From sequence record MN850578.1: DNA of 64,000 nucleotides. The stretch is one strand, 5' to 3'. Of this stretch, positions 1,624-48,833 are shown piece by piece. The notes under the pieces are model-generated. The model was given only the letters and a program-made list of their open reading frames with translations. It searched no databases and was not told the DNA's origin. This DNA comes from Escherichia phage nomo. Position numbers and translations under genes: made by a program. Position 1 is the stretch's first letter; the number at the start of each line of letters is the position of its first letter.

Positions 1624-3369
1624 ATGGCGCAAGACATGACAAGCTTCGAGCAGGCGGTAGATCAAGTAATTGTTGATTCTGAACGTTTGCACTTGATTGT
1701 CAACGGTAACGCTGTGGATGAAGTTGTCGTAGAGGATGGGACCACTATCCCTACGGTACGAAAAGCCATGCTTGACACCCTTTATTTTAAAACGCCACCA
1801 ATCCCTTGGGCGTATGGTGCATCCACAACAGTTTTTAACCAGTTGTATGAGTTTAAAGGGGATACAGGCACTCAGTGGTGGTACGCCCCAGCAGCATCAA
1901 AATCTAACCCGGTTAGAATGCCAGCAGATCCTTCACAATCTCCAAACTGGAGATTATACACCGACTCTGCAGTAATGGCAAAATACTACGCAAAACTTAA
2001 CAGCCCAAGGTTCGAAGGTGACCCGCGAGTACCTACACCTCCAATGGACGATAAGTCAGAGTCCATAGCAAACACAGAGTTTGTTGTTGACTATGTTGAT
2101 AGCATATTTAAAGCCATGGAGGGGATGAAAGTTACTGTAGGATCTTTGGTGGTAAAAGGTCTTACAGAACTCGCTAACACTATAGTTGGTGGCACCCTTA
2201 CCTTACATGGACCTGTTAATGGGGCAGATTCTACTGCACGCTTTAGGAATCTAATCCTCACGGCAAATACTTCTACACTTACTTTTGCGTGGAGCGATCC
2301 TAAGCATGCAGACTGGAGAAGTACAGAGCTGCAACCTCATGAAGTGTCCACCCACAGGGTTATAGCTGACACTATAACTTCTGGGAAACCAGTGGCTAAT
2401 AATAACGATGTGCATTTTGATGGTCTGGGTAATAACTTTTTTGACTACGTGTACATTCGTGGTAATGCCATGAAGGCAGCAACCGAACCGACATTGCAGG
2501 TAGATGGGACCACCAGGGTTAAGAACCTTGAGGTGACAGGTACCGTTACAGGGATAACATACTCTGTCGATGGCACCATGATCTACCCTAGCTATATTGA
2601 AAGCACTGGTGATGCATTGATAAATGGCGATTTGGAGGTTGGCGGGTCTGTAGTTATTCGAGGTACGGCCTCTATCCAAAACATAGCTCTGAATACCTTA
2701 AGAGTCAATGAGCGTGCAACTTTTGAAGGAGAAGGGCTTACAGCCAACAAAGGTGTAATTACCGAGCTGACAACAACCACTTTAACTGCAACAACTGCAA
2801 ACTCTGAAAACTGCAACGTTACCCGCAACTTGCAGGTAAATGGAGATGTCAGTTTAAACGCAGCAGGGACTGGCACCACCTCTGTTCACAACCTTGAAAT
2901 ATCCGGCACGGTGACTGGGTGGTTGCCTGACTTCTCTAATGTCAACTTTGTCTGTAATGGCATTAACTCCAGTGGCAAGATAACCACCTCTCAAGAAATT
3001 GAGGCGGGTAAAACCATTACTGCCCCTACTTTCCACGCAGGAAAGGTAGATTTTGATTTAGAGGAGGTTGACGCGTCCAGTGGGACATGGACACCTAACG
3101 GGCAGGCCAGTATGTATGTTGTTCACGCGAAAGGGGATTTTACAATAGGACAGTGGCCTGGGACATCAGCGGAAGATAAACCTTATCCATTCACTGCGGT
3201 TATCTATGTAATTCAGGATGCTGTAGGTCACAACGTGACTTTGCACGATAAGTATGCTATCCTGTCGGCAACACCTGTTATTAACAACAAGGCTAACAGT
3301 GTTACCTTGCTGCAATTAACGTATTGTGGTGTTGGTGATATCGTAGACGTAGTAATTGCACAACGTTAA
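1624..3369 (+). CDS. putative tail fibre protein
   Basis: RBS aaggag; 581 aa with internal repeats (LEVTGTVTG, LEISGTVTG) typical of fibre shafts. Confidence 0.55.
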   Translation: MAQDMTSFEQAVDQVIVDSERLHLIVNGNAVDEVVVEDGTTIPTVRKAMLDTLYFKTPPIPWAYGASTTVFNQLYEFKGDTGTQWWYAPAASKSNPVRMPADPSQSPNWRLYTDSAVMAKYYAKLNSPRFEGDPRVPTPPMDDKSESIANTEFVVDYVDSIFKAMEGMKVTVGSLVVKGLTELANTIVGGTLTLHGPVNGADSTARFRNLILTANTSTLTFAWSDPKHADWRSTELQPHEVSTHRVIADTITSGKPVANNNDVHFDGLGNNFFDYVYIRGNAMKAATEPTLQVDGTTRVKNLEVTGTVTGITYSVDGTMIYPSYIESTGDALINGDLEVGGSVVIRGTASIQNIALNTLRVNERATFEGEGLTANKGVITELTTTTLTATTANSENCNVTRNLQVNGDVSLNAAGTGTTSVHNLEISGTVTGWLPDFSNVNFVCNGINSSGKITTSQEIEAGKTITAPTFHAGKVDFDLEEVDASSGTWTPNGQASMYVVHAKGDFTIGQWPGTSAEDKPYPFTAVIYVIQDAVGHNVTLHDKYAILSATPVINNKANSVTLLQLTYCGVGDIVDVVIAQR

Positions 3370-12796: not shown

Positions 12797-13060
12797 TCAG
12801 AAACCCTCTAAAAAGCTCTTGTAGAAAACAATCTCAGTATCCACACCAGTCACAATCTTGTCGTTCCTGATTTCATCGGTAAGATAGGTGTCAAAACGCA
12901 GAACCTGTGTGGTGTTGTCACACATCCACTCAGCTGTGACCATTGCGAAAATCTTAGCATCTTCATTATCTGGTGTGAATGTTACCACCTCACCGCACTT
13001 AAACTTTTCGATAGGCTGAGTGTTAGCTTTCGGTTCTGCGATAGTGATTTTTGTGGTCAT
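12797..13060 (-). CDS. hypothetical protein, tandem paralog 1 of 3
   Basis: 87 aa; shares length and pattern (CG.VV, ...TE.D..I.ILGE) with the next two genes. Confidence 0.55.
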   Translation of the reverse strand: MTTKITIAEPKANTQPIEKFKCGEVVTFTPDNEDAKIFAMVTAEWMCDNTTQVLRFDTYLTDEIRNDKIVTGVDTEIVFYKSFLEGF

Positions 13061-13323
13061 TATTCTCCTCCTTCTTTTGAATAGCTTGTCTCTCCAAGGA
13101 TGGTAATTTTGGTGTCAAGCTCTGTAACTTTCATGTTTGGCGGCAGATCGTACAACTCATTATTTTCTAAATCGAACCCCCACACACAATGTTCTCCTGT
13201 TTTGACAATCATAACTATGTTTTGAATGCCGTCTCCGTCGCAACTTACCACGGTCCCACACGGAAAACTGTCTGCACGCTTTTTGTTCTTCACCTTAGAA
13301 TTGAATACAATGCTGGTAGCCAT
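13060..13323 (-). CDS. hypothetical protein, tandem paralog 2 of 3
   Basis: 87 aa; start overlaps the stop of the adjacent paralog. Confidence 0.55.
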   Translation of the reverse strand: MATSIVFNSKVKNKKRADSFPCGTVVSCDGDGIQNIVMIVKTGEHCVWGFDLENNELYDLPPNMKVTELDTKITILGETSYSKEGGE

Positions 13324-13586
13324 TATTGTTCCTCCACCATAACTTCGCCAAGAATTTCTATGCAGGCATCCATTTCTGTAACAACCAAACTGTGAGGCAG
13401 TTCTACAAACACCTTTCTGAACAGGTCAAATACCCCAACATATATGTTTGCAGGATGTGATTTTACAACAAGTGCTGTATTCACATCCCCAAGTTCATCA
13501 ACAAACATCACCACAGTGCCTGGAGCTACTGAGGACAGATACTTCTTAGTTTTACGGTTTGATGCAAATTTTAACTCTGTTGCCAT
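13323..13586 (-). CDS. hypothetical protein, tandem paralog 3 of 3
   Basis: 87 aa; same architecture. Confidence 0.55.
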   Translation of the reverse strand: MATELKFASNRKTKKYLSSVAPGTVVMFVDELGDVNTALVVKSHPANIYVGVFDLFRKVFVELPHSLVVTEMDACIEILGEVMVEEQ

Positions 13587-13601: not shown

Positions 13602-15083
13602 TTACTTAGCGTACTCGATTAATTCCACAGTTTTCCCAAAGCTCGGGATATAATTTTTATTATACCCCTCAGTGAGGACCCATAGAGTATCGTACTTTTT
13701 CCACTTGTTGTCAACAACCTTTTGTTCAAAGTTATGCTCAAAGTATAGGTCGGTCAGGACGATGACATCTTTTGCATTAGGTATGTTGGCATCCAGATAC
13801 TCGAACACGCAAGCAGCTGTTGTGCCCCATGTTGAGTGGACCTCATAGTTGACCATCTCGTCTATGTTGCCGCGAGTGTATACTTTAACCTCTCCAACCT
13901 CAGTTGACCAACAGAACATTGTAACCTTAAACTCTTTATACAGATTGCACAATCCGGTGATTTCATTGAACATTTTCTTTAAAGTTCTTTGAGAGATCGA
14001 GCCAGAAACGTCTAAAGCCACCACAATATCTATAGTGTTTTCCGGATTACGACCAGGAACAATAACGTGCTGGTTCTTGTTTATAGCCCCAACTTTTCGC
14101 ATTGTGCTGGTCAAAGACCCAGATCGGCGACCAGGTTTTCTGTAGGTCAGTTCGGCCTTTCTTTTAGACAACATACGTTGCTTAATGATGTCTATATAGT
14201 TGATTACAGGCCTACCTCTGTTCTTGACAAACTCACGCACCGCCTCAGGGCAACGGCCTCCGGACGCTTGCATTGCTGCCTCCAGCATATCACCAGAGTC
14301 CTGCATGGCCTGATCTTTATCAGATTGGCTGATTACAGGTTGTGGCTGATCATACCCCATAGCCTTTCCAAGATTATCACTGGTGCCACCGTTCCCACTC
14401 ATGTGATCATCGGTTTGTCGCTTATCACTTTGAGAGTTCTCACCTTTACCGTTCTTACTTTTACCGTTATTCTGATCTCTTTGCTTATCAAGAACTGCAT
14501 AAACGTTCTCAGCAATCCATCCATGAAACTTCATGTCGCAGTAGCAGCTGGCTAAGAAGCCAAAAGGCTTACCTTTCATGAACGTAGTGCTTTTCCCCTT
14601 CGGGAAGAAAACACAAGGAGGTTTGCTAAAGTCAACCACAAGGCCTGTGTTGATAACGTGATCACAAGCAATATTGAACAGTTCCGGCTCAAAGCTTTTA
14701 CCACGGACTAGGTGATCACAGATAATATGCCCCACCTCATGTGACAGAAGGAAGGCCACCTCTTTCACAGATTTTGGGGAATAGAAAACTTCAGCCATCT
14801 CAAACTGCTCGTCAGTTAGAGAAGCCTTAAGAATAGCCTTGCGTTCATCAGCCAATCCCATAATGAACTCAGGACTGTAATAGATGCGTTTATGGTCGGT
14901 TGCCATGGTGGAGCACCATGTGTGGTTTTCTACGAACTGCAACCCTGACAATAGTGTGCCATAAAACGGCAGCTTTTCAAGGAGATACATACGTGCAGCC
15001 TGCAACATTCTCAGGGAATCATCTTTCTGCGAGGCAATGATTTCTGAACTTCTGCTATCCATTAAAACTCCAGAAGGGGCCAT
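13602..15083 (-). CDS. vWA-domain protein with putative Zn-metallopeptidase motif
   Basis: HExxH (SHEVGHIICDH) in N-terminal half; MIDAS DxSGS (VVALDVSGSIS) in C-terminal half; alternative start at 15062 has better RBS (ctggag). Confidence 0.65.
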   Translation of the reverse strand: MAPSGVLMDSRSSEIIASQKDDSLRMLQAARMYLLEKLPFYGTLLSGLQFVENHTWCSTMATDHKRIYYSPEFIMGLADERKAILKASLTDEQFEMAEVFYSPKSVKEVAFLLSHEVGHIICDHLVRGKSFEPELFNIACDHVINTGLVVDFSKPPCVFFPKGKSTTFMKGKPFGFLASCYCDMKFHGWIAENVYAVLDKQRDQNNGKSKNGKGENSQSDKRQTDDHMSGNGGTSDNLGKAMGYDQPQPVISQSDKDQAMQDSGDMLEAAMQASGGRCPEAVREFVKNRGRPVINYIDIIKQRMLSKRKAELTYRKPGRRSGSLTSTMRKVGAINKNQHVIVPGRNPENTIDIVVALDVSGSISQRTLKKMFNEITGLCNLYKEFKVTMFCWSTEVGEVKVYTRGNIDEMVNYEVHSTWGTTAACVFEYLDANIPNAKDVIVLTDLYFEHNFEQKVVDNKWKKYDTLWVLTEGYNKNYIPSFGKTVELIEYAK

Positions 15084-15095
15084 TGGCCCCTGTCA

Positions 15096-16139
15096 TTATT
15101 TAACGTGTTTGAAAATACCTGCCAACTCGGTCATTGTCATGCGGGTGGTCTTCATAAGATCTGTCATAGCTTTCTCCATAATTGGAGATACTACCATAAA
15201 GTTTCCTTTAGTGAAACCTTTATTCCAGTCGGTCACCAACAGGGGTTTAAGTCCAGCTCCAAGACGTTCACCAGTTAAAGCACAGCATTTGCGAATATAC
15301 GAACTCTTAAATTGGCTGAACGACAGATCAACTTTCATACCTACATCGTAGAACGTTTGACAATAGAAAGTGTAAGCTTTGGCAATCTCAACATCATCAG
15401 GTAGTGCAGGAACCTCTTCTGTAAGCTCCTCTTCGACCTCCTGAGTCTCTTTTTCCTCTTCATGCACCTGTTGCGTCATTTCTTCAATCTCTTCTGTGAT
15501 AGGCTCGTTTACAATGTCGGAAATGTGCTTCTTGGGTGCACGATAAGTAACTTTAGACATCGGTAGCATATCTTCCTCCTCTTCTTCGTCAAAGAGTGCT
15601 AGTTTATCCTCTTCCGTTCCATATTGCAAGATGAAATCTTCAAAAGTATAATCACCTTTCAATTTCTCCATACGCTCTTCGCTCAGGTGGAGCATCATCT
15701 GCTGGACAATTTTTCGATCAGTTTCGTCTTTAATCAAGACTGCAGTCTTTTTATCTACCAGACAGTCCTTTAGAGAGTTGCATCTCAATCCCACCACACA
15801 ACAGTTATCAACCGCATAAGGACCTTCATCATCTATCCGCTCCAGAGATGGGTAGAAAGGATTTCCCAGCCCGTTTTCATCTGTGTGCATGTCAAAAGGT
15901 ATAAGGGTATAGTCGCATACTCCATCTCCTAAAAGTTTTTTACCAAATAGGAGGTATTCTTCCCATGACAGGTCGAACTCTATATCTCGTTTCCGTGCGT
16001 TATTCTGTTTGCGTCTATATTTTTTGAGCAAGCGCTCTAACTCTTCTGGTGTATAATATTTTTCAAGATTCATGAGTCGTCTCTCGTGCTCTGTAAGTGA
16101 AGAAATCGTATCAATTGTCTCAACAGATGTCAACATCAA
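15096..16139 (-). CDS. hypothetical protein with degenerate endonuclease VII/HNH-like motif and acidic linker
   Basis: KRDIEFDLSWEEYLL..GDGVCDYT..ERIDDEGPYAVDNCCVVGLRCNSLK resembles phage endo VII/HNH core but lacks canonical His; internal in-frame start MLPMSKVTYRA has AGGAGG RBS, so may be two genes. Confidence 0.4.
   Translation of the reverse strand: MMLTSVETIDTISSLTEHERRLMNLEKYYTPEELERLLKKYRRKQNNARKRDIEFDLSWEEYLLFGKKLLGDGVCDYTLIPFDMHTDENGLGNPFYPSLERIDDEGPYAVDNCCVVGLRCNSLKDCLVDKKTAVLIKDETDRKIVQQMMLHLSEERMEKLKGDYTFEDFILQYGTEEDKLALFDEEEEEDMLPMSKVTYRAPKKHISDIVNEPITEEIEEMTQQVHEEEKETQEVEEELTEEVPALPDDVEIAKAYTFYCQTFYDVGMKVDLSFSQFKSSYIRKCCALTGERLGAGLKPLLVTDWNKGFTKGNFMVVSPIMEKAMTDLMKTTRMTMTELAGIFKHVK
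15537..15565. repeat. left arm of perfect 29-bp inverted repeat
   Basis: tgcacgataagtaactttagacatcggta is the exact reverse complement of 17399-17427. Confidence 0.9.
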
Positions 16140-16145
16140 AAACGT

Positions 16146-16174
16146 GTTGACTTTACTCTAACTCCACAATATAG
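16146..16174 (+). promoter_or_regulatory. sigma70-like promoter for 16216 gene
   Basis: TTGACT, 17-bp spacer, TATAGT; lies in palindrome tgtcaacatcaaaaacgtgttgac. Confidence 0.55.
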
Positions 16175-16215
16175 TGCACACATTCGAAAGAAAACTAACA
16201 TAGGAGCACTTACTT

Positions 16216-17115
16216 ATGGCAAATCTTAACAGTTTTAGTACGCGGTGGAAACAGGACATAACAACCAATCTTTCAGCTGGGGACATCCTTTCTGCAATTT
16301 ACGAGGCTTTAGATGATAAAGCTACTTCAAAAGCGGTTTGTACCAACCCACTAATTCCTGTAGTGATGAAGGTTATTGAGCGTAGATTGGTATCTGGGTC
16401 TGATAAGTGGACATATTTAGATAATGAAGGACACACCTATTCCAATGGGTACGTCGATATAAAAGTAGAATACGCGGTATCATACCGCCGGAGCGGTTCT
16501 GTAACTTTCAACTTCTCTGGAGGTTTTCGATCTCTGGCTACCTCACCTTTTGTTTCCTCAGAGGAGAAGTATGAGCTACCATTTCTTTGGATGATGGCTA
16601 ACGCGACAGGAAAAACCCCCGTTAGCATCCGAGTAAAATACAACTACAACGGATCTAGTAAGATCTATGCCGAAAGTGTCTCAGCAAGTTTTTATTTTGT
16701 GATGGGGGATGGAATCCTCAAACATATAAAGATGTGCGATATGCATGATGTTATAAATGAAGTGACTGATAAGAATGTTCTAGTGAAAGACCTCAACAAT
16801 TTTTATACACCCGGAGACTATTACGTCAGCCGTCCACTGTGCATCTTTAATGCCGCACACCCTCTAGGTGAGTATTTGATCGCCAATAGCGATATTGCCA
16901 ATAACCGCTTCGAGGTAGCAAGAGTTCAGAATGAGGTATTGACATCTTGCAAGAGCGGTGATAAGTTTACCGAAGAAGAGATGGGTGTTTTAGAAATGAT
17001 GGGATATAAGTGTAGCCTTTGGGTAGATGAGGTGTTTAATGATTGCATCTATGGACAGGATATTTACCCATTAAAGAAGTATACTGATACAAGTTTAATT
17101 TATGCGAGGGTTTGA
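16216..17115 (+). CDS. hypothetical protein
   Basis: RBS taggag; 299 aa. Confidence 0.55.
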   Translation: MANLNSFSTRWKQDITTNLSAGDILSAIYEALDDKATSKAVCTNPLIPVVMKVIERRLVSGSDKWTYLDNEGHTYSNGYVDIKVEYAVSYRRSGSVTFNFSGGFRSLATSPFVSSEEKYELPFLWMMANATGKTPVSIRVKYNYNGSSKIYAESVSASFYFVMGDGILKHIKMCDMHDVINEVTDKNVLVKDLNNFYTPGDYYVSRPLCIFNAAHPLGEYLIANSDIANNRFEVARVQNEVLTSCKSGDKFTEEEMGVLEMMGYKCSLWVDEVFNDCIYGQDIYPLKKYTDTSLIYARV

Positions 17116-17390
17116 CTATGATGAAGGCGTGTGGTAATGTATACTACGTCGGTGAACATGTTCAGGCAGACAGTGTGTGGAAATCTATTAAGTCCACCAC
17201 TGACGATGCCTTTCTGAGTGGACTATGTTTCCCCAATCCGGGAGACATCCTCCCTCATCCTGGAGATTTTGTTGTCAACAAGATGGACGGTTATACCGTG
17301 TGCCTGATGGTTGAAAAAATATTTTTAGACACTAGACACAATCACCGTCTTGTGTTAAAATTTCAAGAATGTAAAATGACAATTGCCTAA
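17112..17390 (+). CDS. hypothetical protein
   Basis: ATGA overlap with upstream stop; RBS gaggg. Confidence 0.5.
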   Translation: MTMMKACGNVYYVGEHVQADSVWKSIKSTTDDAFLSGLCFPNPGDILPHPGDFVVNKMDGYTVCLMVEKIFLDTRHNHRLVLKFQECKMTIA

Positions 17391-17398
17391 GGAGACCT

Positions 17399-17427
17399 TA
17401 CCGATGTCTAAAGTTACTTATCGTGCA
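17399..17427. repeat. right arm of perfect 29-bp inverted repeat
   Basis: taccgATGTCTAAAGTTACTTATCGTGCA; contains the start codon and first 8 codons of the 17404 gene. Confidence 0.9.
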
Positions 17428-17760
17428 GCTATTTACTGCAATGAACACCCAATCAATAATGATGGTCACTGCCTTTTTAAAGAAAATCAATTGGGCTGTA
17501 TTGTCCTCCCTGATGAAGGGGAAGGTTATCTTATTGCATTGACAGGGTTTGAACCTGAGGCTCTGGAAGCCAATCTGGACTACCTGGTAGAAGAGGGTGC
17601 TGCAGACCTGGTTGCCAATGGCCTCTCCATAAGCCTTGACGAAGTAGAGCGCTTCATGGGCAATTACCGTGTAGTGCGTGAGTTTACTATCGAGGTGGAA
17701 ACTCCCGAGTGGAGTAGCCATGAAACTAATGCCGAAGAAAAAGAAGAGGAGGTAGAATAA
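17404..17760 (+). CDS. hypothetical acidic protein (N-terminus MSKVTYRA)
   Basis: ATG 17404 nine nt after AAGGAG; track TTG start at 17383 less likely. Confidence 0.5.
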   Translation: MSKVTYRAAIYCNEHPINNDGHCLFKENQLGCIVLPDEGEGYLIALTGFEPEALEANLDYLVEEGAADLVANGLSISLDEVERFMGNYRVVREFTIEVETPEWSSHETNAEEKEEEVE

Positions 17761-18017
17761 TGAAAGTGCAGATCTTGACTAATGCCGAGAAGATGTTTAT
17801 TGAAGATACACCTTTTGAAGCTGGTGAGCTACAGTTCGTTTATTTTGTTGACTTAGATAAGGTGTTTCCTGCACTGAATCTAGGTTTGGATGAAGTTCCT
17901 CATAAGGTTTTGTGCCAAGTTGTTCGTGCCTTAGCGGCAGAGGGGGAGTTCCACACCCTTCAAGATGTCCAGACCTACGGGTATCTTGAACTACAACGAG
18001 AAGAAGAGGTGGACTGA
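17760..18017 (+). CDS. hypothetical protein
   Basis: RBS ggagg; ATGA-coupled. Confidence 0.5.
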   Translation: MKVQILTNAEKMFIEDTPFEAGELQFVYFVDLDKVFPALNLGLDEVPHKVLCQVVRALAAEGEFHTLQDVQTYGYLELQREEEVD

Positions 18018-18019
18018 TA

Positions 18020-18400
18020 ATGGCTCAGTGGAAGACAACAGTTGACCTTCATGATCAGTGGTTAGGACGCATCACTGAAGACGGGAAGCTAGTGGAGTGG
18101 GACAATAAGCATGTTAGCGAGTTGGCAAGTATTGTGGCTGGCAAGTTACGCTCCAAGTTCCCTGAACAACTGGATCCTGATAGTTCAAAGTTCGATCCTG
18201 AGTTGGAGGATGTTGTATACTACTTCGATACCGTGGATGACTACGATGCGTGGTTTGCAGCACGGGAGCTTTACCCACAAGGCTCTGCTATGCGCCAGAT
18301 GGAAGAAGATTATCCTCCGTGTGAGCAATTCAATAGTGCAATGACTTGCCTCTATGATTGGGCAGATAAGAACCTTGTCTGGATTCGGACTGCATTTTAG
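18020..18400 (+). CDS. hypothetical protein
   Basis: RBS gaggtgg. Confidence 0.5.
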   Translation: MAQWKTTVDLHDQWLGRITEDGKLVEWDNKHVSELASIVAGKLRSKFPEQLDPDSSKFDPELEDVVYYFDTVDDYDAWFAARELYPQGSAMRQMEEDYPPCEQFNSAMTCLYDWADKNLVWIRTAF

Positions 18401-28341: not shown

Positions 28342-28348
28342 CACTAGG

Positions 28349-28375
28349 CCCTGCCCGAAAGGGTAGGGCTTTTTG
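28349..28375 (+). terminator. rho-independent terminator
   Basis: gccctgccc-gaaa-gggtagggc then ttttt; near-identical copy at 38482. Confidence 0.65.
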
Positions 28376-36791: not shown

Positions 36792-36874
36792 CAAATACCT
36801 ATTGTAATTTGCAGAAGGGGATGCTAAAATAGTGTCTCCTTCTATGTTGTTCAAATAAAATCGGAGATTCCATA

Positions 36875-37240
36875 ATGGAACAAATGAACGATCAAGCGTC
36901 GGTTGCGATGAACGAGCAAGAACAACCTCAAGAATTTTTCTTAGGGTTAAGTAAAGATCAAGTGTCTCTTCTGCTAGTGCTTTCTTCTTTCATGGGAAGA
37001 CTTCAGGAGCTCACACAACAACCAGAGGCTGAACAATTATTTCAAGCTCTGCGTGAAGAAGAAAAATATCGTCGTTTGGACTATGCCTTAGGTTGGGTAG
37101 CTCAACAACGAGATATGCTGATGGCCCTCTCTGGGACCACAAGTTTTGCAATGGGGCTGTTGGCTCAAGTTCAGGACAAATTAATTCAAGCAGGGTTTGC
37201 ACACACGGCAAACACTAACGAAGAACAAGGAGACAAATAA
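36875..37240 (+). CDS. hypothetical protein
   Basis: RBS cggaga. Confidence 0.5.
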   Translation: MEQMNDQASVAMNEQEQPQEFFLGLSKDQVSLLLVLSSFMGRLQELTQQPEAEQLFQALREEEKYRRLDYALGWVAQQRDMLMALSGTTSFAMGLLAQVQDKLIQAGFAHTANTNEEQGDK

Positions 37241-38466
37241 TGAGCGTTATTCAACAATTCGCTAACCCGATGAATCCGCGTGAAACTGTTTTACTGGCTC
37301 ACGGCATGATTAAACGTGTCAGCATCAAGCCTATCAAAGGTGCTGATCCTACAACAGGTATTAAAACCACTGTGTGGCAAGGTAAGAAAATTGAATCCAG
37401 CCACACCATCTCTTTACTGATTTCTGAACTGGATTCCTCTGATAACCTGCTTCAAGGTGGTGAAGAAGTTTGGATCAGCATGGGTGATAAGCTGCTTAAA
37501 CCTGGTCATCAAGACTCTGTCTCTGTTAAAATTGATGACAAGTGGGAAACCGTAACGCCGGGATGGATCGTAAATATTCCTTTGAAGGCAAACGAGCATA
37601 ACGGTAAGACCTATTACAAAGGCTCACTGGCTAAGATGGTCAAGCTGGGTGCAGGAGAGGCTCCAGCAGCGACTCAGCAGCAAAAACAGCAACAAGGTGC
37701 ACAATCACAAGGCCAGAAGCAGAAACCTCAGCAGAATGCCAATCAGGACGTTTTACGCATCTATGGCGATGTGACTCAGATTGTTGGCAACGTGGTTACT
37801 GTTAATGACCACAAGATTGGCGAAGGTGCTATGGTTGTAACTGATGAGCAGCTTAAAGACCTGGTGGTAGGTGGTCGTGTTGCAGCCATTGTTGACAAAG
37901 ACACCGGAAACATTATCAGTGGTTTCAAAGCCTATCCCCCTAAGGCAGAGAACGGCACTCAAGGCTCCGGTGGCAAGCGTAAATCCTCTTACGACCCTAT
38001 CGGTGTGGAAACGGGGCATAGCATCAATGCGTTGCAGATCATCCTGGATCGCGGGTTTAAGGTAGACGACCCACTGGGCGTGGCTAAAACACTGCACGTA
38101 GTCACCATTGAGCTTAAGAAAGAGTATGCTCAAGCCACCAACCGAACTGAAGATGAAGTAGGTGCCAGTGTCGGTAATGCGGTGTTGAACGCTTGTCGCC
38201 GTATTGACAAGAAAACGAAAGTTGATGATTTTGCAGCGGCAATTACTGCAGAAGCAAAAGATGTCTTGACTAATCTGGCTGAACCGTTGTACGATTGGAT
38301 CAAGAACGGTGCTGGGTCAACTGACTATCAAGAACCCCAGGCTGCCAAACAGGAAGCAGCTCCACAGCAAAACACTGTAGACGCTCCTCCTGTAAATGAT
38401 GAGGAAGATGACCCAATGGATCAGAATCCAGCACAGTATACCTTTGATGATGACATCCCTTTTTAA
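37240..38466 (+). CDS. putative ssDNA-binding protein with bacterial SSB-type C-terminal tail
   Basis: Ends ..NPAQYTFDDDIPF, identical in its last six residues to the E. coli SSB C-terminal tip DDDIPF; Gln-rich linker before acidic tail. Confidence 0.55.
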   Translation: MSVIQQFANPMNPRETVLLAHGMIKRVSIKPIKGADPTTGIKTTVWQGKKIESSHTISLLISELDSSDNLLQGGEEVWISMGDKLLKPGHQDSVSVKIDDKWETVTPGWIVNIPLKANEHNGKTYYKGSLAKMVKLGAGEAPAATQQQKQQQGAQSQGQKQKPQQNANQDVLRIYGDVTQIVGNVVTVNDHKIGEGAMVVTDEQLKDLVVGGRVAAIVDKDTGNIISGFKAYPPKAENGTQGSGGKRKSSYDPIGVETGHSINALQIILDRGFKVDDPLGVAKTLHVVTIELKKEYAQATNRTEDEVGASVGNAVLNACRRIDKKTKVDDFAAAITAEAKDVLTNLAEPLYDWIKNGAGSTDYQEPQAAKQEAAPQQNTVDAPPVNDEEDDPMDQNPAQYTFDDDIPF

Positions 38467-38481
38467 CATCTAGTTAACATA

Positions 38482-38509
38482 GCCCTGCCCGAAAGGGTGG
38501 GGCATTTTT
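38482..38509 (+). terminator. rho-independent terminator
   Basis: gccctgccc-gaaa-gggtggggc then atttttg; sequence copy of the 28349 terminator. Confidence 0.6.
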
Positions 38510-38528: not shown

Positions 38529-38945
38529 ATGACATTAGAAGATATCATTGTTAAGCCTGAGAACTATGACCAATACAACCTGTCAACTCAATCTGTAGAC
38601 CTTGGATGCGCCACGGTCAGTGCGTGGCTGGTTAACGGAAAAGAGCTGGATAAATGCTTAGAAGCTCACATGTCTATTAACAAGTTTCTGGATGAAAATA
38701 CTCACTGGCTTGAGGGTGCAGGCGTATATGCTTCATGGTTGGATAGTATGGGATTCGACTACCAATCTGAAGAGGGGTGGTGGAGCTATTTAGCTATCTG
38801 TCCAGAGACGCTACAATGCTTCATGAAATATTCTGAAGATTTGGAGTACCGGGCGGTGGTTGATAGTGCTATTGCCCGTTATAGCCGTAAACCTTTTTCC
38901 CACGACATTAAAACTGTGGAAGAATTTGTTGAAGTTTTCTGTTGA
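38529..38945 (+). CDS. hypothetical protein
   Basis: RBS aaggag. Confidence 0.5.
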   Translation: MTLEDIIVKPENYDQYNLSTQSVDLGCATVSAWLVNGKELDKCLEAHMSINKFLDENTHWLEGAGVYASWLDSMGFDYQSEEGWWSYLAICPETLQCFMKYSEDLEYRAVVDSAIARYSRKPFSHDIKTVEEFVEVFC

Positions 38946-39041
38946 CACAGATTGAAAGGTGTGCAATTATAACTTCATAGAACGGGAGGACGTGATGAAC
39001 GAAGAAAACTGGGATGTATAACTAACAGGAGGCCACTGCCC

Positions 39042-39239
39042 ATGATTTATCGAATCCGTGTAAGAGAAGATGCACCAGGCTGTTACTTTGACTGGCGTGG
39101 GTGGTGGTTTATCCACCCAATGGATGGACTCACAGATAGAATGCTGGATGCTGCCCTTTACACAGATACCGACATAGAATATAATCTCTATCTGAAGGAC
39201 GGTATAGATAACGGCCTGTTTGAAGCAATTCCTGTGTAA
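39042..39239 (+). CDS. hypothetical protein
   Basis: RBS caggagg. Confidence 0.45.
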   Translation: MIYRIRVREDAPGCYFDWRGWWFIHPMDGLTDRMLDAALYTDTDIEYNLYLKDGIDNGLFEAIPV

Positions 39240-39307
39240 GAGACTGTGATAGCTATGTTTTATGATCTTCCTGTAGCGCCACCACCTGTTGAACCAGGAG
39301 AACTAAG

Positions 39308-39733
39308 ATGATCTATGAAATGCCAAAACTGATTCGTGACGATGCCCAAAACGCTCACACCATTATTATGGGCAAACGCATGGATATTATTTGTCATAAA
39401 GATTTCTGGGAAGGAAGTTACTTCACAGAGTATTTTGGTAAACTGGACAATGGTCTGCTGATCCAGTTCTACACCGATGCGGAAAACAACATTCCCTGGG
39501 AGTTCGAAACTGAAGATGTCCATAAACTTTTCACCTTCCTCGGTATTAAGGTTAAGGCCAAGTTTGAAGAAGGTGAGTGCGACGATTGTGGATTTTATGA
39601 GGTAACAGATTTCTACCTTCCTAGCGGTAAGAACCTTTACTATGAAAGCCACTTCGGTAACTCCAATATGCCACAGTGCTGGACTGAGTTTTTTGAAATT
39701 GCGGAAGAGGAGCTGGCTTACCGTGATTATTGA
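39308..39733 (+). CDS. hypothetical protein
   Basis: RBS caggaga. Confidence 0.5.
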   Translation: MIYEMPKLIRDDAQNAHTIIMGKRMDIICHKDFWEGSYFTEYFGKLDNGLLIQFYTDAENNIPWEFETEDVHKLFTFLGIKVKAKFEEGECDDCGFYEVTDFYLPSGKNLYYESHFGNSNMPQCWTEFFEIAEEELAYRDY

Positions 39734-40181
39734 TACTGTAGAGGGGGATTTAATCTCCCTTTTTAAGAGCGGTGCTGGTCACCTGATCCACGGTTGTAAC
39801 TGCTTCCACACAATGGGCAAGGGTATAGCAAAACAGATTGCCCGTGAGTTTCCTCAAGCACTGTCAGCCGACAAAGAGACTAGATACGGTTGCCTAAGTA
39901 AACTGGGTGCGTTCTCCCGATGGGAGCACTTATCTCCGATAGGTATTGTCTACGGAATCAATCTATATACCCAGTTCTACCCAGGACCTAATGCTGAGTA
40001 TTTCTCAATCCTGAAAGGCTTTGAGCTAGTCAATGAAGTATTCAGCGGATCGACTTTACCATTCTACATCCCTAAGATCGGGTGCGGCATAGGCGGTTTG
40101 AAGTGGGAACACGTAGAGGACGTTATTAACCTTGCCACTTTCGACATAGATATTGTCGTGGTGGAGTACAAAAAGTGTTGA
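39723..40181 (+). CDS. macrodomain protein (TARG1/OARD1-like, putative ADP-ribose hydrolase)
   Basis: EGDLISLF..AGHLIHGCNCFHTMGKGIAKQIAREFP matches the GDL...H.(S/N)..C.MG.GIA..F core of TARG1-type macrodomains; start uncertain (GTG 39723 or ATG 39642). Confidence 0.5.
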   Translation: MIIDTVEGDLISLFKSGAGHLIHGCNCFHTMGKGIAKQIAREFPQALSADKETRYGCLSKLGAFSRWEHLSPIGIVYGINLYTQFYPGPNAEYFSILKGFELVNEVFSGSTLPFYIPKIGCGIGGLKWEHVEDVINLATFDIDIVVVEYKKC

Positions 40182-43990: not shown

Positions 43991-44386
43991 ATGAATAAGA
44001 ACGTACGCCGCATCATGAACGAACTGGCAAACGATGAAAAAATTATTGATATGCATTTGGTCAACATTTGCCGCCGTTGTGTAACATATAACAACCGCGC
44101 CGCAAAAGCGTGTGAGATGAACGCAAAAGGCACCTTAAAGCCCTTTCAGGTGGTTGTAAAATCTATAACTAGCGCAGCAGGCCAGGCGCAGGACCACAAC
44201 AACGAGAGCGCTAATATTGATCCGTCTTACGTAATGAAACGGATCCGGACTTGCAAGAATAAAGAGCAGGTATATAACGTCATAGATTGGCTGGACTCCC
44301 TGGGCGATGTGGTTTACAATAGGTTTTCTGCAGCTATCGAGATCCAGCTTGACAGATTGGACGGGAAAGTACTAAAAACTTATTGA
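43991..44386 (+). CDS. hypothetical protein
   Basis: ATG after aaaggaaaaag. Confidence 0.55.
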   Translation: MNKNVRRIMNELANDEKIIDMHLVNICRRCVTYNNRAAKACEMNAKGTLKPFQVVVKSITSAAGQAQDHNNESANIDPSYVMKRIRTCKNKEQVYNVIDWLDSLGDVVYNRFSAAIEIQLDRLDGKVLKTY

Positions 44387-44387
44387 G

Positions 44388-44434
44388 TTTATTTTTAGAT
44401 GGCCTTGACACCAGGGCCATCAATAAAGTAAACT
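44388..44434 (+). promoter_or_regulatory. repeated promoter/operator cassette, copy 1
   Basis: tttatttttagATGGCCttgacaccagGGCCATcaataaagtaaac; -35 TTGACA inside 6-bp inverted repeat; near-identical at 45010 and 48745. Confidence 0.55.
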
Positions 44435-44665: not shown

Positions 44666-45007
44666 ATGACTACTATGACCGCCTCAGAAAAAGCTATGCA
44701 GATCGCTGAACTGAAAAAACAGATCGCAGACCTTGAGAATAAGATCGATAACTTTGAAATCGACGAGGACAAGTACGACGAAAACTATGATGAATGGTTA
44801 GACGAGATCTACGGAGAAATTATGATCGGAAACATTTCTTTTCTTCCGTCGCGTATCCTCAAGGAGCTAGATCCTATCGCTTACCGCTGCGGATTTAGCG
44901 ACTACATCGACAGCCTGGATATTGAGGACGATGAAGAATACCAGGAATTACAGACAGAGTTAGAAGAAGCAAAAGAAGAGCTTGCGGAGCTGGAAGAAAA
45001 CGAGTAA
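44666..45007 (+). CDS. hypothetical acidic coiled-coil protein
   Basis: RBS aaaggag; 113 aa, Glu/Asp-rich. Confidence 0.55.
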   Translation: MTTMTASEKAMQIAELKKQIADLENKIDNFEIDEDKYDENYDEWLDEIYGEIMIGNISFLPSRILKELDPIAYRCGFSDYIDSLDIEDDEEYQELQTELEEAKEELAELEENE

Positions 45008-45009
45008 GC

Positions 45010-45054
45010 TTATTTTTAGATGGCCTTGACACCAGGGCCATCAATAAAGTAAAC
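45010..45054 (+). promoter_or_regulatory. repeated promoter/operator cassette, copy 2
   Basis: Identical core to copy 1. Confidence 0.55.
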
Positions 45055-45096
45055 TTTATACTGTTAACACTGAACTAATGCATAGGAGTTAAAACC

Positions 45097-45342
45097 ATGG
45101 CAGCACTAATCACCAAATATTATGCCCCTACCAACACCAAAAGCGCCCGTATCATGGTAAAAGGCTTCGGACGTAAAAAGGTGTACACCTGGGATTATGC
45201 CTTAGACACGGAAGACAACTACACCAACGCAATGACCGATTTTATTAATGAACTAAATAAGCAGATCTTGACAAGTTATAAAGTGACTGATATTGCTTAT
45301 ATAGGTGAAGGCGGGATCTGTTTTGTAGGCATTGTGAAATAG
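45097..45342 (+). CDS. hypothetical protein
   Basis: RBS aggag. Confidence 0.55.
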   Translation: MAALITKYYAPTNTKSARIMVKGFGRKKVYTWDYALDTEDNYTNAMTDFINELNKQILTSYKVTDIAYIGEGGICFVGIVK

Positions 45343-45416
45343 TTATTTTTTCGGTGGTCCTGGCTGCAGGGCCATCTATAAAGATAATTTATCAACACCA
45401 TGAAAGGAGAAAGTAC

Positions 45417-48742: not shown

Positions 48743-48744
48743 AA

Positions 48745-48790
48745 TTTATTTTTAGATGGCCTTGACTCCAGGGCCATCAATAAAGTAAAT
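48745..48790 (+). promoter_or_regulatory. repeated promoter/operator cassette, copy 3
   Basis: Same 46-bp cassette with one substitution in the -35 (TTGACT). Confidence 0.55.
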
Positions 48791-48833
48791 TTAAACCCTG
48801 TTAAAATAATCAGTGCAAAAAGGAGTAATGATC

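Follow-up and report, generated by a model that had tools for sequence, protein, structure and literature searches.

A perfect 29-bp inverted repeat in Escherichia phage nomo is probably a scar of the gp8 start copied into the gp11 linker

The analysed window comprises 64,000 nucleotides of Escherichia phage nomo (sequence record MN850578.1), a Vequintavirus, i.e. an rV5-like E. coli myovirus, and it contains a perfect inverted repeat of 29 bp that connects the genes gp8 and gp11. One arm, the 29-mer TACCGATGTCTAAAGTTACTTATCGTGCA, occupies 17399-17427 of the plus strand; the other, at 15537-15565, is its reverse complement without a mismatch, and 1833 nt separate the two arms. When up to three mismatches were allowed, these two sites were the only ones detected in the window, and no match was obtained in 100 dinucleotide-preserving shuffles. 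The repeat is the sole perfect inverted repeat of at least 20 nt in the window and the longest one in the complete 140-kb genome of the close relative WalterGehring, where a third copy of the 29-mer was not found. A 13-nt partial match at 3242-3254 was at the level of chance, with unrelated sequence around it, and was discarded. Translated, both arms read ..PMSKVTYRA in one frame. The original prediction had reported the repeat as too long to be a chance match and had both reading frames encoding (L)PMSKVTYRA; on these points it was confirmed, and the repeat is real and not a product of chance.

The region 15000-18100 matched 119 phage records and was 99.7% identical to the phages C12 and LL12. 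The right arm (17399-17427, plus strand) is a true initiation region: it covers the last 5 nt of the spacer between the Shine-Dalgarno (SD) sequence AAGGAG of gp8 and the ATG, together with gp8 codons 1-8 (MSKVTYRA). The gp8 gene (17404-17760, plus strand; phrog_12908) encodes a protein of 118 aa of unknown function. The left arm (15537-15565, minus strand) lies inside gp11 (15096-16073, minus strand, as annotated in relatives; 325 aa, Srd-like), where it spans L170(part)-P171-M172-S-K-V-T-Y-R-A179 of the acidic inter-domain linker, the ATG of the repeat being Met172. The earlier assignment of both arms to translation starts thus holds for the gp8 arm, and the gp11 arm is internal to its gene. 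Between the arms are located gp10 (16216-17115, plus strand; 299 aa, annotated as 'putative alpha 1-3 fucosyltransferase') and gp9 (17118-17390, plus strand; 90 aa). Predicted back-to-back sigma70-like promoters at ~16105-16175 would serve gp11 leftward and gp10-gp9-gp8 rightward; in relatives, P11 is annotated in rV5 and PhagePromoter predictions exist for both strands in Gotham. The two units are divergent and transcribed outward from these promoters, and not convergent as had first been described. The -35 boxes of both promoters sit within the palindrome GTCAACATCAAAAACGTGTTGAC (16129-16151), which could be an operator common to the two divergent early units.

In relatives, gp11 is annotated either as 'anti-sigma factor' or, in RefSeq, as 'HNH endonuclease'. 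Its PHROG matches include phrog_3118, the Srd anti-sigma family phrog_1400 and the sigma70 decoy family phrog_4592 as well as 'endonuclease' families, and in the rV5 paper it is regarded as a probable Srd homologue (PMC3606486). No sequence match to gp11 was found in Pfam, PDB or NCBIfam, and searches of the same three databases with gp8 and gp10 gave nothing usable. The gp11 gene belongs to the syntenic core of four Vequintavirinae genera. Its alignment with the Seunavirus, Avunavirus and Mydovirus homologues revealed two conserved domains and a linker that could not be aligned; this linker, which harbours the left arm, is acidic and hypervariable in both length and sequence. We also considered the N- and C-domains as internal repeats of one HNH-like fold, which was unsupported (BLASTP E = 0.98). 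The gp8 gene is restricted to the genus Vequintavirus, tblastn retrieving 116 records, all at least 81% identical and all aligned from residue 1. There is no similarity between gp8 and gp11 outside the 29 nt, and the match stops sharply at both edges. The adjacent gp12 (13602-15083, minus strand) is named 'HNH endonuclease' in RefSeq records of relatives; its Pfam matches are a DUF2201_N putative metallopeptidase domain (E = 5e-28) and a VWA-like DUF2201 domain (3e-11), and its RefSeq name looks like an annotation error propagated through the genus.

The locus was aligned between the window and 21 other Vequintavirus genomes (22 in total, 88-99.7% identity), and the gp11 arm was counted with a 59-nt junction query in a genus set of ~117 records. 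The gp8 arm is universal in the genus, with ordinary variation; it was present in all 22 aligned genomes with 0-2 substitutions, some of them non-synonymous (0-3 substitutions when three metagenome/IMG contigs were included). The gp11 arm, which defines what we call the type A allele, occurred in 27 of the ~117 records and in one human-gut metagenome contig; the repeat was missing from ~90 congeners of identical gene order. In the alignment, type A is carried by the window, FFH2, LL12, Gotham, WalterGehring, Alma, C2, nomine and MiataMamis. Elsewhere we found type B alleles, including in the deepest branches represented by Aya (88%), FV3/HMD-6 (91%) and rV5 (93%). Sixteen records labelled 'Campylobacter phage' (MG0656xx, some UNVERIFIED) were 93-99.7% identical to E. 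coli Vequintaviruses at the locus; the host label is doubtful, and these records may represent E. coli phages carried over in samples.

At the position of the left arm, type B alleles share the motif ..CACC(G/A)ATG-25 nt-(G/A)ATCGTG(C/G)AGCC.., and the rV5 sequence reads ..GATATGTCACCGATG CAGGATTTTAAAAATTTCATGGCTG ATCGTGCAGCC.. (MSPMQDFKNFMADRAANK). Two short cores, ACCGATG and ATCGTGCAGC, are thus common to the type B alleles and the start of gp8. In type B these cores are separated by 25 nt, in place of which type A has the 13 inter-core nt of gp8, giving the 29/29 match. The outgroup genera have P-Q-Q-E at the patch position, which is nearer to P-M-Q-D of type B than to P-M-S-K of type A. 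The start of gp8 is the same in type A and type B genomes, and the transfer was therefore non-reciprocal. Moreover, the type B alleles are diverse among themselves and type A is nearly invariant: none of the 29 sites of its 29-mer segregates (nucleotide diversity, pi, 0), and in the linker 5 of 261 do (pi 0.004). For the gp8 29-mer of the 22 genomes, 7 of 29 sites segregate and pi is 0.038, compared with 0.043 for the rest of gp8. From the allele distribution, the outgroups and these diversities we conclude that type A is the derived state, with the gp11 arm as recipient and the ancestral gp8 arm as donor.

The two arms do not evolve together. They differ at two positions in Alma and at one in nomine, the changes being in the gp8 arm and the gp11 arm remaining intact, and among type A genomes the diversity of the right arm is 0.023 and that of the left arm 0. 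The arms drift independently, and nothing keeps the repeat perfect. Concerted evolution of the arms was rejected for the same reason, the right arm being variable while the left is invariant. A correlation of the G/A site of ACC(G/A)ATG between gp8 and gp11 of type B genomes, inspected by eye, was not convincing.

Type A forms part of a larger mosaic. When the window was compared with the type B phages JeffSchatz and I29, the differences clustered within gp11 in a block of ~620 bp at 15243-15864 (minus strand) that carries the type A linker allele; between 15865 and 18400 just eight sites differed from JeffSchatz. When the patch is excluded, the linker of type A differs by 10-12% from the rV5-like as well as from the FV3-like alleles, and these two differ from each other by 12-16%; type A therefore represents a third allele class. 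The type A phage nomine and the type B phage JeffSchatz belong to one species of the International Committee on Taxonomy of Viruses (ICTV), Vequintavirus APECc02, and inoa carries type A even though it is just 94.9% identical to the window across the locus. Together with the mosaic block, these cases imply that homologous recombination carries the block from genome to genome. With the 29-mer excepted, all exact matches between the block and the rest of the window were of 14 nt or less, the 14-mer among them being a self-palindrome. The numbers of 12-mers (10, with 5.7 expected by chance) and 13-mers (2, with 1.4 expected) were near expectation, and further templated patches in the block were rejected on this ground.

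These observations suggest that the inverted repeat is most probably a historical scar, left when the start of gp8 was pasted into the linker of gp11, and not a working element. In an ancestor of the type A lineage, a short stretch of the gp11 linker would have been overwritten by a copy of the 5' end of gp8, the donor lying 1.8 kb away in opposite orientation and retaining its own sequence. The copy would have been anchored by two microhomologies that persist in unconverted alleles, ACCGATG at one edge and ATCGTGCA(GC) at the opposite edge. Between them, 13 nt of gp8 (TCTAAAGTTACTT) would have replaced 25 nt of gp11, changing ..SPMQDFKNFMADRAANK.. to ..LPMSKVTYRAPKK.. in frame, with a net loss of four codons (12 nt). 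The copying would probably have taken place through template switching by the polymerase or through synthesis-dependent break repair on an ectopic microhomologous template. While the phage DNA was replicated, or while a break in the linker was repaired, a nascent 3' end that stopped in one of the microhomologies may have paired with the core at the gp8 start on the opposite strand or on another genome copy, been extended by ~20 nt and returned via the second core. The change would have been tolerated by the unconstrained linker. The type A allele would then have spread by descent and, as the ~620-bp block, by homologous recombination among several Vequintavirus species, the two copies now drifting independently. 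The direction of the transfer, its non-reciprocity and the flanking microhomologies are shown by the comparison of alleles, and the route is inferred from the footprint.

Mutations in which a template switch makes the arms of an imperfect inverted repeat identical are well established for coding DNA. Known as quasipalindrome-associated mutations, they were first reported in T4 rII and in E. coli, and yeast coding genes have been surveyed for them (PMC8604942, PMC7202029, PMC7954356). As in such mutations, short pre-existing inverted microhomologies would have given rise here to a derived perfect inverted repeat, the multi-nucleotide replacement is clustered in one arm with the other arm as the unchanged template, and it lies within coding sequence, where several amino acids were altered together. 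However, the present arm is longer (29 bp), there is a net deletion of 12 nt, and the arms are 1833 bp apart compared with the usual distance of at most 100 bp, which makes an intrastrand hairpin unlikely and requires the assumption of break repair or of a switch that was intermolecular or across the fork. The footprint also resembles ectopic short-patch conversion or templated insertion of the synthesis-dependent strand annealing (SDSA) type, in that it is non-reciprocal, involves tens of nucleotides and leaves a non-allelic donor unchanged; the edges of the tract coincide here with the microhomologies. Ordinary gene conversion differs in requiring extended homology between paralogues, whereas the unrelated genes gp8 and gp11 share just 7 nt and 8-10 nt.

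Several points weigh against a copied patch. A pre-conversion intermediate, in which type A flanks would enclose a type B centre, was sought with a gapped pattern in IMG/VR, where nothing matched, and in metagenomes, where the two contigs recovered had an ordinary type A and an ordinary FV3-like type B allele, respectively; the conversion can therefore not be placed on any sampled branch. The type A linker is 10-12% off every sampled type B allele, which precludes a single-step reconstruction from a sampled ancestor, and the bases adjoining the patch differ as well (T>C at position -6, and GCC AAC>CCC AAG after the patch). The switch in a classical quasipalindrome event bridges a spacer of at most 70 bases (PMC8604942), and with 1833 nt an intermolecular or break-repair route must be assumed. 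As the documented spacers are of tens of bases, the intrastrand-hairpin version is unlikely and is a poorer fit than an intermolecular switch or ectopic repair of the SDSA type. The long spacer thus lowers the case for a classical intramolecular quasipalindrome event but not for a templated copy as such. The copying mechanism is in any event read from its footprint and not observed.

The repeat could also be interpreted as an invertible switch, in which recombination between the arms would flip 15566-17398, and an invertible 1.8-kb segment was among the explanations offered by the original prediction. As the inverted arms match perfectly and share one reading frame, both junctions would stay open: the gp11 N-domain would be fused to gp8 and the gp11 C-domain would be expressed from the gp8 ribosome-binding site, both in frame. 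Because an inversion would be in frame at both junctions the repeat resembles a switch, although there is no indication that inversion occurs, and like Mu G/Gin, P1 C/Cin, Salmonella Hin and the shufflons it consists of inverted repeats of the ~26-34 bp class within coding sequence whose inversion swaps parts of proteins. A length of 29 bp is also close to the lower limit for homologous recombination, and the phage has genes for endonuclease VII, for exonucleases and for a ligase (the nuclease-type annotation of the type A phage WalterGehring comprises homing endonucleases, endonuclease VII, exonucleases and ligases). However, all 115 of 115 full-length records were collinear with the window in one piece, as was the repeat-bearing metagenome contig, and the comparison of related phages for either orientation thus yielded a single one. 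Inversion-specific junctions would read GGAGACCTTACCGATG..GTGCACCCAAG and GATATGCTACCGATG..GTGCAGCTATT, with the spanning sequences GGAGACCTTACCGATGTCTAAAGTTACTTATCGTGCACCCAAG and GATATGCTACCGATGTCTAAAGTTACTTATCGTGCAGCTATT, and the chimeric post-inversion junction query was matched over its full length neither in IMG/VR nor in any of 50,697 phage records. Furthermore, the left arm is confined to the type A minority of the genus, and the arms are already imperfect in Alma and nomine; unlike in the known systems, the repeat is not genus-conserved and is decaying, no invertase is annotated, and the genes flanked by the repeat are not tail-fibre genes but early ones whose function is Srd-like or unknown. 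A search for recombinases elsewhere in the genome, which had been proposed, revealed no annotated integrase, invertase or resolvase of the serine or tyrosine type among the 236 features of the repeat-bearing WalterGehring, many of whose open reading frames (ORFs) are 'hypothetical' and were not individually profiled, and no recombinase domain was detected in the eight ORFs around the locus. Taken together, this leaves an invertible switch scarcely credible. Still less probable is an inversion of low frequency, recombinase-independent and homologous, that phage populations would use to produce a minority of gp11N-gp8 fusions and a free gp11 C-domain. If true, it would amount to domain-shuffling bet-hedging in a Srd-like host-takeover gene and would explain the spread of the type A block over several Vequintavirus species.

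A shared translational-repressor or antisense target had also been suggested. The 29 nt, present in the same sense in both transcripts, might be bound in both mRNAs by one repressor or small RNA, or an internal start at Met168/Met172 might yield a free gp11 C-domain; GGAGGAAGAT precedes ATG(Met168) in gp11 at a good SD spacing, and the type A allele occurs in several species. However, most of the genus lacks the left arm though both gp11 and gp8 are present, which excludes a conserved shared operator. Conservation of the 29-mer in gp8 does not exceed that of the remaining gene, and non-synonymous variants occur in it, the gp8 copy is the only one at a gene start, and the SD-like purine run in gp11 is a by-product of Glu codons that varies between alleles. 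In addition, the repeat had no Rfam match at E <= 1, and the two contexts folded differently and not better than shuffles (z -1.7 and -0.07). We therefore consider a shared cis-regulatory RNA to be very unlikely. The remaining suggestion, a recent gene-conversion or homing event, was sustained in its first part, as a non-reciprocal copy from gp8 to gp11, but homing is not indicated. In a homing event, gp11 or a nearby homing endonuclease would have cut the DNA and the repair would have co-converted the region. The label 'HNH endonuclease' given to gp11 by RefSeq and PHROG and the presence of ~8 homing endonuclease genes in the genome are consistent with this, and a linker break repaired from an ectopic template would leave the same footprint as the copied patch. 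On the other hand, gp11 belongs to the syntenic core across the Vequintavirinae, unlike a mobile gene of sporadic occurrence, Pfam gave no HNH match for it, the literature treats it as a Srd homologue (PMC3606486), and no presence/absence polymorphism of a homing endonuclease gene was seen at the locus in the 22 aligned genomes. Moreover, homing copies the allelic locus and not the start of a different gene, and we regard it as highly improbable here. Finally, an ancient duplication relating gp8 and gp11, a chance match or an assembly artefact has nothing in its favour beyond the repeat itself: the genes lack similarity outside the 29 nt, the shuffles exclude chance, and the identical allele recurs in 27 isolates that were sequenced independently of one another, as well as in a metagenome contig. 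The probability of any of these is practically negligible.

Some other repeats were noted in the window and in WalterGehring. A 49-nt direct repeat (AGTTTATTTTTAGATGGCCTTGACACCAGGGCCATCAATAAAGTAAACT) is present in four copies (44386-44434, 45007-45055, 45341-45389 and 48743-48791; 73-100% identical) in a region of many small early ORFs. It has a GGCC..GGCC hairpin around TTGACA, recurs in WalterGehring at ~85245-89657 and may constitute a family of repeated promoter/hairpin regulatory cassettes. Three abutting ORFs of 87 aa on the minus strand (12797-13060, 13060-13323 and 13323-13586) are visibly similar in sequence, as if a small early gene had been triplicated in tandem. A near-identical GC-rich hairpin followed by a T-run (GCCCTGCCCGAAAGGGTAGGGCTTTTT) occurs at 28348-28374 and 38482-38508, 10 kb apart, and the two have the appearance of intrinsic terminators that were reused. 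The longest exact repeat of WalterGehring is a direct one of 30 nt (37817-37846 and 39875-39904) at the 3' ends of two short-tail-fibre coding sequences (36821-37861 and 38876-39919), which would fit paralogy or local conversion between them.

Understood as a patch of gp8 copied into gp11, the repeat is an ordinary evolutionary scar. It calls for caution, as one templated copying error in a tolerant protein linker can leave behind a long perfect inverted repeat with the appearance of a switch, and comparison with close relatives suffices to separate a switch from such a copying scar. The locus would thus provide a clean natural case of microhomology-anchored transfer between unrelated phage genes 1.8 kb apart, and a small data point on how multi-codon novelty may arise in phage proteins and then travel between species on a mosaic block.

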